Positions 4,634-12,722 of a DNA stretch of 21,910 nucleotides are shown here, piece by piece. The stretch is from the IMG/VR virus record IMGVR_UViG_2579778884_000002, one strand, 5' to 3'. A program made the translations under genes and the position numbers. A model generated the notes under the pieces. The model had not been told where the DNA came from. It saw nothing but the letters and a program-made list of their open reading frames with translations, and searched no databases. The DNA comes from a virus (lineage: Duplodnaviria; Heunggongvirae; Uroviricota; Caudoviricetes). Each line of letters starts with the position of its first letter. The first letter of the stretch is position 1.

Positions 4634-5091
4634 GCAGAATAACCGCGATTATCTCCGCTCTGGTTATCTGCGTCATCGTCTGCCTTTCATGGGCGGTTAA
4701 TCATTACCGCGATAACGCGATTACCTACAAAGCCCAGCGCGACAAAAATGCCAGAGAACTGACGCTGGCGAACGCGGCAATTACTGACATACAGATGCGT
4801 CAGCGTGATGTTGCTGCGCTCGATGCAAAATACACGAAGGAGTTAGCTGATGCGAAAGCTGAAAATGATGCTCTGCGTGATGATGTTGCCGCTGGTCGTC
4901 GTCGGTTGCACATCAAAGCAGTCTGTCAGTCAGTGCGTGAAGCCACCACCGCCTCCGGCGTGGATAATGCAGCCTCCCCCCGACTGGCAGACACCGCTGA
5001 ACGGGATTATTTCACCCTCAGAGAGAGGCTGATCACTATGCAAAAACAACTGGAAGGAACCCAGAAGTATATTAATGAGCAGTGCAGATAG
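4630..5091 (+). CDS. Rz: Inner-membrane spanin Rz (i-spanin)
   Basis: 153 aa with an N-terminal TMD ([20 protein letters not shown]) and a coiled-coil periplasmic domain. Matches recalled lambda Rz. Start overlaps the R stop. Confidence 0.95.
4850..5032 (+). CDS. Rz1: Outer-membrane lipoprotein spanin Rz1 (o-spanin), embedded in the +1 frame of Rz
   Basis: 60-aa ORF entirely inside Rz. Lipoprotein signal [20 protein letters not shown] and proline-rich [15 protein letters not shown]. Matches recalled lambda Rz1. Confidence 0.95.
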
Positions 5092-5095
5092 AGCT

Positions 5096-5111
5096 GCCCA
5101 TATCGATGGGC
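5096..5111. terminator. Hairpin between the convergent Rz and bor genes (possible bidirectional terminator)
   Basis: GCCCAT-atcg-ATGGGC perfect 6-bp inverted repeat between the Rz stop (5091) and the bor stop (5123). No strong U-tract on either strand. Confidence 0.3.
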
Positions 5112-5122
5112 AACTCATGCAA

Positions 5123-5416
5123 TTATTGTGAGCAATACACACGCGCTTCCAGCGGAGTATAAATGCCTAAAGTAATAAAACCGAGAAATCCATTTACGAA
5201 TGTTTGCTGGGTTTCTGTTTTAACAACATTTTCTGCGCCGCCACAAATTTTGGCTGCATCAACAGTTTTCTCCTGTCCAATTCCCGAAACGAAGAAATGA
5301 TGGGTGATGGTTTCCTTTGGTGTTACTGCTGTCGGTTTGTTTCCAACAGTAAACGTCTGTTGAGCACATCCTGTAATAAGCATTGCCAGAGCGGCAGAAA
5401 ACAACATTTTTTTCAT
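5123..5416 (-). CDS. bor: Bor outer-membrane lipoprotein (serum-resistance lysogenic-conversion factor)
   Basis: 97-aa product from the internal ATG at 5416 (MKKMLFSAALAMLITGCAQQTFTV...), matching recalled lambda Bor with lipobox LITGC. The longer ORF-track version (to 5464) adds 16 N-terminal residues. Confidence 0.95.
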   Translation of the reverse strand: MKKMLFSAALAMLITGCAQQTFTVGNKPTAVTPKETITHHFFVSGIGQEKTVDAAKICGGAENVVKTETQQTFVNGFLGFITLGIYTPLEARVYCSQ

Positions 5417-5896
5417 CTTATTATCCTGCATTGTTAAAAACGGCAGAATCCTATGTGACAACAATTAAACGATAGTTAAATGGATTGATGAAAATTAAAA
5501 CTACACAGGTGGGCTCAGACTATTGGAGGAAGTTGGGGACACTCAGAATCCTGTGGAATGAAATAAACCGGTCTATCCGTCCATTACCCTTTTAGCTGCG
5601 CTGTATCGTCGCCGTATTCCCGCATTAACCATGACCGTAGCCCGACGGGGAATTCCTTCTGCGTGAGTGTGCGGGAATAATTAAAAACGATGCACACCGG
5701 GTTTTTACCGCGTTAATGATTCGCGGGTTTATCCCGGTGCGATGGTGGAAGAAACAGGAAGCTGTATTACAGAAAGTGCTACTACTGTATCCCGATGCGA
5801 TGTATGTAATGTGAGTCAGATAATGGCACAGGATGTGGTGATGTGGCAGTCTGGAACACAGGATATATTGTCAGAATAAGACCCGTAGGAATAAAA

Positions 5897-6223
5897 ATGA
5901 AAAGACGCCTTTTACTACTTTTTCTGTTATCTGTCCTGGCAGTGGGATGCTCGCAGCAAAAAGCTGATGAGCCCCGGCAATTAGTGACGGTGTATCCACG
6001 ATATCCGGAATATGCTGCAGCAAATTATATCAAGGGGCTGGTTGAGGTTAAGTTCGATATTGGTGCTGATGGGACTGTGACACGGATCGTTTTTCTCCGC
6101 TCAGAGCCTCATAATTTGTTTCGTGATGAAGTGGTGAAGGCCATGGCGAAATGGCGATTTGAAAAGAATCGCCCCTGTCAGGGAGTGAAGAGACAATTTA
6201 TCTTTACGCCGTCACGTCCTTGA
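5897..6223 (+). CDS. Lipoprotein consisting of a TonB C-terminal domain (TonB_C-like accessory gene)
   Basis: 108-aa product from the ATG at 5897 (AGGA 6 nt upstream). Signal peptide with lipobox MKRRLLLLFLLSVLAVGC. The mature part aligns with the E. coli TonB C-terminal domain: YPRYPEYAAANYIKGLVEVKFDIGADGTV...EPHNLFRDEVVKAMAKWRFE versus TonB YPARAQALRIEGQVKVKFDVTPDGRV...KPANMFEREVKNAMRRWRYE. No proline-rich spacer and no N-terminal TonB membrane anchor. Confidence 0.75.
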   Translation: MKRRLLLLFLLSVLAVGCSQQKADEPRQLVTVYPRYPEYAAANYIKGLVEVKFDIGADGTVTRIVFLRSEPHNLFRDEVVKAMAKWRFEKNRPCQGVKRQFIFTPSRP

Positions 6224-6949: not shown

Positions 6950-7160
6950 CGTTTTCGGGTCCTTTCCGTCGATCCAACAGGTTACGGGGCGGCGACCTCG
7001 CGGGTTTTCGCTATTTATGAAAATTTTCCGGTTTAAGGCGTTTCCGTTCTTCTTCGCCGTAACTTAATGTTTTTATTTAAAACACTCCCTGAAAAGAAAG
7101 GAAACGACAGGTGCTGAAAACGGGCTTTTTGGCCTCTGTCGTTTCCTTTCTCTGTTTTTG
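6950..7160 (+). other. cos: cos site region (cosQ-cosN-cosB) of a lambda-type packaging system; cosN cohesive-end sequence GGGCGGCGACCT at 6987-6998
   Basis: The 12-nt lambda cohesive-end sequence occurs at 6987-6998, flanked by sequence matching the recalled lambda right end (GGGTCCTTTCCG...ACAGGTTACG) and left end (CGCGGGTTTTCGCTATTTATGAAAATTTTCCGGTTTAAGGCGTTTCCGTTCTTCTTCG). Nu1 starts 178 bp downstream. Confidence 0.9.
7039..7153 (+). promoter_or_regulatory. cosB: terminase small-subunit binding sites R3, R2, R1 with an intervening A/T-rich IHF-type site
   Basis: CGTTTCC core repeated at 7039-7045 (R3) and 7140-7146 (R1), and inverted as GGAAACG at 7100-7106 (R2). A/T-rich stretch TAACTTAATGTTTTTATTTAAAAC lies between R3 and R2. 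Confidence 0.75.
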
Positions 7161-11422: not shown

Positions 11423-12722
11423 TCTCCCGCATATTGCCAGTATGGCCTTTAATGAGCCGCTGATGCTTGAACCCGCCTATGCGCGGGTTTTCTTTTGTGC
11501 GCTTGCAGGCCAGCTTGGGATCAGCCGCCTGACGGATGCGGTATCCGGCGACAGCCTGACTGCCGGAGAGGCACCCGCGGCGCTGGCGTTATCCGTTGAT
11601 GATGACGGACCACGACAGGCCCGCAGTTATCAGGTCATGAACGGCATCGCCGTGCTGCCGGTGTCCGGCACGCTGGTCAGTCGGACGCGAGCGCTGCAGC
11701 CGTATTCGGGGATGACCGGTTACAACGGCATTATCGCCCGTCTGCAACAGGCTGCCAGCGACCCGATGGTGGACGGCATTCTGCTCGATATGGATACGCC
11801 AGGCGGGATGGTGGCAGGGGCATTTGACTGCGCTGACATCATCGCCCGTGTGCGTGACATAAAGCCGGTATGGGCGCTGGCCAACGACATGAACTGCAGT
11901 GCAGGTCAGTTGCTTGCCAGCGCCGCCTCCCGACGTCTGGTCACGCAGACCGCCCGGACAGGCTCCATCGGCGTCATGATGGCTCACAGTAATTACGGTG
12001 CTGCGCTGGAGAAACAGGGCGTGGAAATCACGCTGATTTACAGCGGCAGCCATAAGGTGGATGGCAACCCCTACAGCCATCTACCGGATGATGTCCGGGA
12101 AACACTGCAGTCCCGGATGGATGCAACCCGCCGGATGTTTGCACAGAAGGTGTCGGCATATACCGGCCTGTCCGTGCAGGCTGTGCTGGATACCGAGGCT
12201 GCAGTGTACAGCGGTCAGGAGGCCATTGATGCCGGACTGGCTGATGAACTTGTTAACAGTACCGATGCGATCACCGTCATGCGTGATGCACTGGATGCAC
12301 GTAAATCCCGTCTCTCAGGAGGGCGAATGACCAAAGAGACTCAATCAACAACTGTTTCAGCCACTGCTTCGCAGGCTGACGTTACTGGCGTGGTGCCAGC
12401 GACGGAGGGCGAGAACGCCAGCGCTGCGCAGCCGGACGTGAACGCGCAGATCACCGCAGCGGTTGCGGCAGAAAACAGTCGCATTATGGGGATCCTCAAC
12501 TGTGAGGAAGCTCACGGACGCGAAGAACAGGCACGCGTGCTGGCCGAAACCCCTGGTATGACCGTGGAAACGGCCCGCCGCATTCTGGCAGTTGCACCAC
12601 AGAGTGCACAGGCGCGCAGTGACACTGCGCTGGATCGTCTGATGCAGGGGGCACCGGCACCGCTGGCTGCAGGTAACCTGGCATCTGATGCCGTTAACGA
12701 TTTGCTGAACACACCAGTGTAA
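11403..12722 (+). CDS. C: Head maturation protease / minor capsid protein C
   Basis: 439-aa product from the GTG at 11403 (VTAELRNLPHIASMAFNEPLML...), matching recalled lambda gpC. The longer ORF-track frame (from 11268) is an upstream extension overlapping B. Confidence 0.93.
12327..12722 (+). CDS. nu3: Scaffolding protein Nu3, nested in-frame in the 3' end of C
   Basis: In-frame ATG at 12327 preceded by the strong SD CAGGAGGG, giving a 131-aa product identical to the C-terminus of C. Another in-frame ATG at 12117 is an alternative start; I am not certain which matches the reference annotation. Confidence 0.6.
   Translation: MTKETQSTTVSATASQADVTGVVPATEGENASAAQPDVNAQITAAVAAENSRIMGILNCEEAHGREEQARVLAETPGMTVETARRILAVAPQSAQARSDTALDRLMQGAPAPLAAGNLASDAVNDLLNTPV

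Follow-up and report, generated by a model that had tools for sequence, protein, structure and literature searches.

This locus raises the question of what two neighboring inverted repeats, lying in an untranslated gap between the lysis and packaging genes of a lambdoid prophage, represent. The window, by which we mean the whole 21,910-nucleotide stretch of viral DNA that was analyzed, carries the late region of such a prophage, with Q, S, R, and Rz/Rz1 (to position 5091) followed by bor. The landmarks around the gap are as follows:

5123-5417, - strand: bor
5418-5896: gap from bor to the TonB-like gene, 479 bp
5897-6223: small gene, between the element described below and cos, for a lipoprotein with a TonB C-terminal domain
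6987-6998: lambda-type cosN
7176: nu1, with terminase A after it

The gap is therefore longer than the 430 bp given in the first-pass annotation. Positions 5420-5900 are 100% identical to phage 21, in whose record 5600-5741 is unannotated and the sole feature nearby is a hypothetical coding sequence (CDS) on 5742-5879. The lipoprotein gene is accessory and occupies the place that leftward genes hold in lambda. Its locus is common to phage 21 and 821 E. coli genomes, at 100% identity over a 481-bp query that covers just the first four bases of the gene.

Both inverted repeats exist, with some correction to how they had been described. The first lies where it was placed, at TATTCCCGCA (5615-5624) and TGCGGGAATA (5670-5679), and is a perfect repeat of 10 bp with a 45-nt spacer, not of 9 bp with 47. 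The second, a compound palindrome at 5693-5741, is present with one mismatch per tier: its outer arms, CACACCGGG (5693-5701) and CCCGGTGCG (5733-5741), are complementary at 8 of 9 positions, the other being an A·C, and its inner arms, ACCGCG (5707-5712) and CGCGGG (5722-5727), pair at 5 of 6. A repeat finder reported this palindrome as one pair of 18-nt arms that are 72% complementary. It is lineage specific, and the pairings conserved in relatives differ from those originally drawn. When the intergenic region was subjected to 300 dinucleotide shuffles, 1.3% of the shuffled sequences contained a perfect inverted repeat this long or longer (≥10 bp) whose arms were no more than 60 nt apart, and single-sequence folding z-scores were modest (-2.1 for the + strand and -1.65 for the - strand). 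Judged from the window by itself, the repeats are suggestive only; the strong evidence is comparative.

Comparison with relatives showed that both inverted repeats are stems of one discrete element:

5598..5760, + strand: whole conserved element, phage-21-type copy, 163 nt (179 nt in most relatives)

The best explanation of the whole, to which we assign a probability of roughly 0.6, is that the element is a folded RNA domain of ∼165 to 180 nt, encoded on the late-gene strand in the untranslated gap from the lysis cassette to cos/terminase. One component of this explanation, that RNA structure on the late strand has been under selection, we consider highly likely.

Covariance model R1 has a sole match in the window, at 5598-5760 on the + strand (174.9 bits; E value, 6e-48). 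The element occurs in 4,583 of 5,426 complete E. coli genomes (∼85%), at 11,733 places and up to 11 times per genome, with as many as 11 copies in EHEC. It is also found in 432 phage records, including lambda (nucleotides 46869-47033, between bor and lambdap78), 434, 21, 933W, VT2-Sakai, many Stx1 and Stx2 phages, the Shigella phage POCJ13, and the Salmonella phage S135. Identity among copies is about 75 to 100%, and many copies are 95 to 100% identical. Covariance model searches of P22, HK97, and HK022 found no copy, indicating that the element is not essential to the lambdoid life cycle. Two degenerate-pattern scans and a linker-variant scan for wider relatives returned only Escherichia/Shigella- and Salmonella-type copies, plus random matches. 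By these scans the family is a narrow one, of lambdoid phages of Escherichia, Shigella, and Salmonella.

The element keeps its position downstream of Rz and upstream of cos/terminase regardless of the genes that flank it. The flanking sequence was long enough to examine in 172 copies. An Rz-like open reading frame (ORF) lies on the same strand within 2.5 kb upstream in 166 of them (ending within 30 nt of the element in 16 of these), and a lambda-type cosN lies within 4 kb downstream in 70 and within 150 nt in 6; one copy at locus L021 stops ∼70 bp before cosN. What precedes the element varies and may be bor, the stop codon of Rz (∼10 nt away), or other accessory genes, and its 5′ boundary is sharp: unrelated upstream sequences give way to the element at the same base each time. 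Downstream lie packaging modules of the Nu1/A, DUF1441, or HNH-plus-small-terminase type. In lambda, DLP12, and 434 the element sits between leftward genes, and elsewhere both neighbors are rightward or bor is absent. Mosaic breakpoints fall at and within the element, the types of its first and second domains reassort, and the domain 2 type follows the type of the downstream module. The element is thus a discrete, mosaic, and very widespread module.

In the window, this module lies between two divergently oriented accessory genes, an arrangement that had led to the proposal that bor and the TonB-like gene are controlled by a regulator binding to operators here. We give this proposal scarcely any credence: the element is found without either gene and is unchanged where both are missing, 45 bp separates the arms, the repeats coincide with no promoter-like hexamers, and it is the complementarity of the half-sites that is kept while their sequence changes. 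A feature acting as DNA, either a joint for module recombination or a packaging or replication site, with palindromes kept perfect by template-switch (quasipalindrome) repair, would suit the breakpoints at and inside the element, the reassortment of domain types, and the proximity of some copies (≤150 bp) to cosN. We nevertheless consider such a feature quite improbable, given that the element accompanies all three types of packaging module and that the cos phages HK97 and HK022 are without it. Furthermore, a short cos fragment is all that lambda needs to package a cosmid, and the length of the element is kept across unrelated domain 2 inserts, which is a better fit to a folded molecule.

Several other arrangements of the element and its fragments were observed. 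Some prophages (loci L021, at 5058-5235 and 5998-6180, L031, L191, L193, L196, L210, and L215) hold two copies ∼0.95 to 2.7 kb apart that bracket an inserted accessory gene having its own ribosome-binding site and terminator, which looks like the footprint of recombination between phages that differ in which side of the element the insert occupies. A perfect hairpin, GTGCGACC-GTG-GGTCGCAC, stands on both sides of some copies (L021, at 5031-5048 and 5250-5267; also L031 and L095), with a weak T-run after it on one side; it could be either a small repeat element or a terminator at a moron boundary. Partial matches of ∼100 nt (L170, L180, L187, L188, L200, and L201) run from the P1 5′ strand through P3 (helices as defined below) into unrelated sequence and end in the GTGCGACC hairpin; the 3′ strands of P2 and P1 are gone, and this short form looks like a decayed copy. 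At ∼695 places on E. coli plasmids there is a fragment comprising domain 1 only, at 82 to 88% identity (e.g., NZ_CP033091.2, 22936-23199, and NZ_CP098193.1, 174010-174105); these fragments presumably adjoin iss, the bor homologue of ColV-type plasmids, as a phage remnant carried with it. An exact 19-mer of the linker occurs on contigs labeled Nanosynbacter, Modestobacter, Thiomicrorhabdus, Planctomycetota, Spirosoma, and others (L007, L008, L011, L013, L014, and L015), most likely from contaminating E. coli or lambda DNA in those assemblies.

The element was compared with known RNAs, genes, and protein-binding sites. At the gathering threshold, Rfam 15 gave no match in the window, S135, Sakai Sp9, 933W, or L021, and at E values of up to 10 on positions 5400-5950 there were two noise matches to eukaryotic lncRNA models, both outside the element. 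A scan for tRNA and tmRNA found none. The element itself is absent from the annotation of the phage and RefSeq records inspected, at most overlapped by a hypothetical CDS; the literature on lambda transcripts, borD/ybcV, and structured phage RNAs yielded nothing relevant, and 15- to 16-nt strings from the element matched no paper. A protein-coding role was rejected: the copies share no open frame, and indels of 1 nt are present among them. The phage 21 gene CPT_21_72 (45 amino acids; window 5742-5879) has its ATG inside the P8 loop, where other lineages have GGG, ACG, or GUA, and the sequences downstream are unrelated, so that it is probably a spurious ORF annotation. A Nu1 R-site at GTTTCTTCC (- strand) was ruled out because the element accompanies three different terminase types. 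Comparison by eye with hammerhead and HDV-like ribozymes, RfaH ops, boxB, tRNA-like 3′ ends, and signal recognition particle (SRP) RNA found none that fits.

Variation among the collected copies was used to draw the helices, and the following predicted features make up the fold:

5603..5609, + strand: P1 5′ strand, GUAUCGU, pairing with 5687-5693 (RNAalifold)
5687..5693, + strand: P1 3′ strand, ACGAUGC
5615..5625, + strand: P2 5′ strand, UAUUCCCGCAU, the arm of the first repeat originally noted
5669..5679, + strand: P2 3′ strand, GUGCGGGAAUA
5628..5635, + strand: P2 extension of two pairs (RNAalifold), AC with GU at 5667-5668, then the internal loop CAUGAC
5636..5640, + strand: P3 5′ strand, CGUAG, pairing with 5659-5663
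5659..5663, + strand: P3 3′ strand, CUGCG
5641..5649, + strand: P4, an apical mini-hairpin, CCC-GAC-GGG, read by eye with no formal count
5680..5698, + strand: A-rich linker, AUUAAAA, nearly invariant, then, past the P1 3′ strand, ACACC
5695-5698 and 5744-5747, + strand: candidate pseudoknot, CACC with GGUG
5699..5735, + strand: domain 2, made of P6 and P7 (RNAalifold), the compound palindrome originally noted
5699-5701 and 5733-5735, + strand: P6, GGG with CCC, enclosing P7
5708-5712 and 5722-5726, + strand: P7, CCGCG with CGCGG
5734..5758, + strand: P8, the 3′ hairpin, CCGGU, a 15-nt loop GCGAUGGUGGAAGAA, and ACAGG

Each of these helices varies in a manner of its own. The second pair of P1 alternates among U·G, C-G, and U-A. 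In P2, 5 of the 11 pairs have changed on both sides (e.g., UAUCUCCACA/UGUGGAGAUA), including a C-G to G-C switch in lambda. P3 alternates between U·G and C-G, with an A-U to U-A change in one lineage, and the P4 stem is kept as loops vary (CCCUUAAUGGG; CCAG-ACA-CUGG) and is deleted in one lineage. All three counted pairs of P7 have changed on both sides; the domain 2 insert around it is wholly different between lineages, yet the total length is still 179 ± 3 nt in most. P8 reads UCCKGU/ACMGGA (UCCGGU/ACCGGA or UCCUGU/ACAGGA) or CUCGAU/AUCGAG in relatives; with 6 of 7 pairs compensatory and a loop that is always 15 nt and ends in GAAGAA, it is the clearest of the predicted helices.

Near-invariant sequence is found in loops and junctions, namely, AUUAAC, GAGUGU, AAUCAAAAAC, and the 15-nt GAAGAA loop. 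The internal loop between P2 and P3 has a variable 3-nt bulge and then a conserved G-A opposite a conserved G-A at 5665-5666. Most copies fit a kink-turn pattern there (AC/GU pairs, a bulge of CAU, AGA, AAU, or UAU, and GA opposite GA), lambda-type copies having GU in place of GA; the loop is possibly kink-turn-like. At the candidate pseudoknot, 63 sequences have CACC/GGUG, 9 have UACC/GGUA, and 4 are mixed. The pairing is weakly indicated, and the switch to UACC/GGUA looks like one evolutionary event.

The first-pass annotation had proposed covariation analysis across homologous prophages and named a lack of conserved dyad symmetry as grounds for refutation; the dyad symmetry is kept in relatives while the sequence of the arms changes. 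As an independent test of P2, copies were fetched by patterns that demanded a change in its 5′ arm only, and their 3′ arms carry matching changes, for example, UAUCUCCACA/UGUGGAGAUA and UAUUUCCGCA/UGCGGAAAUA. In a MAFFT alignment of 57 distinct domain 1 sequences, 97.5% of the cells of P1, P2, and P3 are paired and 7 pairs have changed on both sides; slid controls are 23 to 67% paired. From 20 diverse full-length copies, RNAalifold found P1, P2 with its two-pair extension, P3, P6, P7, and P8 unprompted, with compensatory changes in 12 of the 38 consensus pairs. A covariance model was built from this alignment, and 64 distinct copies aligned to it have 97.3% of cells paired and 16 of 38 pairs changed on both sides, counts that lean toward the structure to which the copies were fitted. 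In both the domain 1 and the model-based alignments none of 500 shuffles reached the observed values (0/500 each), these being controls that ignore relatedness, and many of the compensatory changes may stem from few lineages. Compensatory changes are shown by these comparisons to maintain the predicted helices P1, P2 (with its short extension), P3, P6, P7, and P8, counted as seven, at a level above controls, as is generally looked for in a conserved structured RNA.

These results bear directly on whether the element has any function. Many copies are 95 to 100% identical and the single-sequence statistics are modest, as they would be if conservation reflected recent spread among prophages and the repeats arose by chance. 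This we find barely credible, because 16 of 38 pairs carry compensatory changes, slid and shuffled controls fall far lower, and the element is kept while its flanks are unrelated.

The pairing also distinguishes the two strands. The same pairs are canonical in 97.2% of cells on the + strand and 85.6% on the - strand, with consensus folding energies of -36.9 and -16.9 kcal/mol, respectively. G·U occurs in 258 cells over 25 pair columns and A·C in 26 cells over 8 columns (∼10:1), and on the - strand the commonest states of several pairs turn into A·C mismatches. The + strand is that of Rz and the late operon, and the element is oriented like Rz in 166 of the 172 copies. The predicted pairing fits the + strand far better than the - strand, and the excess of G·U over A·C probably places the RNA on the late-gene strand. 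This asymmetry also tells against the DNA-level reading, for which template switching could copy arm changes; Ripley in 1982, and later studies of E. coli quasipalindromes, reportedly found that template switching in inverted repeats copies a change from one arm to the other. Such copying yields perfect complements and leaves the 10:1 excess of G·U on one strand unexplained.

The alternative that the functional transcript comes from the - strand, as a 3′ untranslated region (UTR) or terminator for the leftward lambdap78/ybcV or DUF3950 gene or as a long bor leader, draws on the position of the element between leftward genes in lambda, DLP12, and 434. The lambda copy has a promoter-like site that abuts its left edge and is directed at bor, another inside its 3′ end that points away from it, and, downstream of lambdap78, a - strand terminator-like hairpin with a CGUUUU tail that overlaps the linker. 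Given this terminator-like site, some - strand role in the lambda context is possible. As an account of the element itself the alternative is very unlikely, since the element also lies between rightward genes or without bor, and the - strand is inferior in pairing, folding energy, and the ratio of G·U to A·C (258:26).

How the RNA would be made is suggested by the signals around the element. A consensus scan of both strands of 5418-5896 found no promoter- or terminator-like site within or immediately flanking it, and in scans of four contexts no such site travels with it, with no promoter-like site upstream on its strand in the three contexts other than the window. In Sakai Sp9, the nearby signals belong solely to a leftward ylcI-family gene. 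No intrinsic terminator was recognized at P8 or at the long hairpin described below: there is no U-tract, and AUGGUGG... and AAGCUG... come after. In O157 strain 644-PT8, a consensus scan placed a strong + strand terminator ∼125 nt upstream of the element with no promoter between them, implying that only a terminator-resistant (Q-modified) polymerase should reach it. With neither promoter nor terminator conserved alongside it, the element RNA is probably made as part of the Q-dependent late transcript from pR′. The earlier suggestion of a structured small RNA is thus borne out for a structured RNA, by covariation and wobble asymmetry, and not for a free-standing small RNA, as these scans recognized no conserved promoter- or terminator-like site that belongs to the element.

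An independent prophage small RNA (sRNA) gene, with its own promoter and acting by base pairing in trans, would have precedent in AgvB and AsxR (EcOnc01-03), the anti-sRNAs of EHEC lambdoid prophages (Tree et al. 2014, PMC4104026; Rfam RF02702 and RF02703). Like the element, these are noncoding RNAs at a conserved, mosaic late-region position, with many copies per EHEC genome, and lambdoid prophages are known to carry small RNA genes at such positions (PMC4104026). The element is self-contained and moves between contexts, and some variants have a hairpin with a short U-run ∼15 nt after it. On the other hand, AgvB and AsxR are encoded antisense to the late operon, between pR′ and the lysis genes, and are 51 to 60 nt long, with their own promoter, a U-tailed terminator, and Hfq binding, whereas the element comes after Rz on the late strand, spans ∼180 nt and seven helices, and has no terminator and no Rfam match. 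These differences in position exclude AgvB/AsxR, and likewise the Pas sRNAs, as its identity. Because there is no conserved promoter-like site, upstream DNA differing right up to the first base, because the conserved block lacks a terminal U-tract terminator, and because a 180-nt multihelix RNA is unlike the 51- to 60-nt anti-sRNAs, we regard an independent sRNA gene as improbable.

The published Hfq-CRAC peaks EcOnc10, EcOnc11, and EcOnc12 (PMC4104026) were considered as antisense to the element. The Sakai coordinates in that paper are ∼140 nt lower than those of NC_002695.2, as shown by the position of AgvB1, and after correction the three peaks fall 20 to 75 nt outside the element, on the opposite strand, on a ylcI-family terminator. 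This rules out the antisense assignment and counts further against an independent sRNA gene; among the peaks tabulated there as EcOnc, none was traced to the element. The corrected peaks lie at ∼1779645-1779700 (Sp9), 1946945-1947007 (Sp10), and 2234379-2234438 (Sp12) of NC_002695.2 (loci L224 to L226). They are highly ranked and uncharacterized, sit on the terminator or 3′ end of a ylcI/ynfO-family gene that converges on the element, and may mark a 3′-UTR-derived sRNA.

The copy in the window departs from the common form of this late-strand RNA, the 179-nt consensus type, of which Sakai Sp9 has an example at 1779459-1779636 of NC_002695.2. Most relatives have 14 to 16 extra bases (consensus, UCAUGSUCGCCNGU) between CCC and GGTGCG; the phage-21 type is without this ∼16-nt segment and part of the P8 5′ strand, and it has A for C in the P8 3′ strand and one P8 pair that is a G·A mismatch. 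The deletion gives rise to the compound palindrome, weakens the otherwise universal 3′ hairpin, and makes CCC (P6) and CCGGU (P8) overlap, so that the two helices are mutually exclusive in the window copy; phage 21 is viable nevertheless. Its predicted minimum free energy fold is a single long hairpin of -59 kcal/mol, compared with -43.8 kcal/mol when P8 is forced (a cost of ∼15). Lambda-type copies lack the same segment and keep P8. The window copy is thus predicted to be a deletion variant whose 3′ domain collapses into one long hairpin.

Some classes of phage RNA resemble the element in part. The put sites of HK022, two stem-loops of ∼70 nt in all, lie just downstream of the early promoters and are specific to that phage. 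Like the element, the put RNAs, which are cis-acting antiterminators, are untranslated and promoterless folded domains in a lambdoid operon transcript, but comparison showed no match to it in sequence or architecture, and HK022 is without the element. RNase III sites, such as those of the T7 early and late mRNAs and lambda sib, are single hairpins of ∼50 to 60 nt without conserved loops. Domain 1 resembles them in being an extended, irregular hairpin, interrupted by internal loops, that separates blocks of genes on a polycistronic phage mRNA; unlike them, the element combines three domains with near-invariant sequence in its unpaired parts, a loop fixed at 15 nt, and a possible pseudoknot. The cabRNA of staphylococcal phages (PMC10686824) and the ROOL and GOLLD prophage RNAs (PMC12286853) are likewise structured RNAs from the late or packaging region of temperate phages that were recognized by structure first. 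None of them is related to the element in sequence: cabRNA originates inside terminase genes, its defining property being that it binds a CBASS cyclase, and ROOL and GOLLD are several times larger.

In the mechanism that we propose for the folded RNA domain, Q-modified RNA polymerase from pR′ would transcribe the element within the long late transcript, with no promoter of its own, and its RNA would be abundant in lytic growth only. The element would work as RNA, through a specific three-dimensional fold that binds a conserved host or phage factor, either while embedded in the late mRNA or once cut out. The near-invariant loops and junctions, the fixed length, and the possible kink-turn and pseudoknot point to a partner-binding fold. 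Based on these conserved unpaired sequences and fixed length, a probable tertiary structure, the lack of a conserved downstream neighbor, and a position always after the lysis genes, we tentatively favor, at short of even odds, a folded module within the late transcript that would bind a conserved partner, perhaps once it has been excised. In a simpler version, the fold would serve as a boundary for processing or stability at the point where the late mRNA passes from its lysis part to its packaging part; this version seems to us doubtful, leaning to unlikely. A bolder proposal, which we think possible and on balance doubtful, is that lambda and most of its E. coli relatives make a late functional RNA of ∼180 nt, with a kink-turn-like bend and a pseudoknotted GAAGAA loop, that acts in trans. 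Its target might be a host factor, which it would sequester or which would sense it; an RNA-binding protein, a nuclease, and a sensor of anti-phage defense are examples. It might instead bind a small molecule or release itself from the late transcript by self-cleavage.

Few genomes in biology have been studied as closely as those of lambda, 21, 434, and the Shiga-toxin phages, and the element is still unannotated in the records inspected and has no Rfam family. Its presence offers a concrete explanation for the mosaic joint that recurs where the lysis module meets the packaging module. The fold, if functional, would be a new RNA component of the lambdoid late program, present in ∼85% of E. coli genomes.
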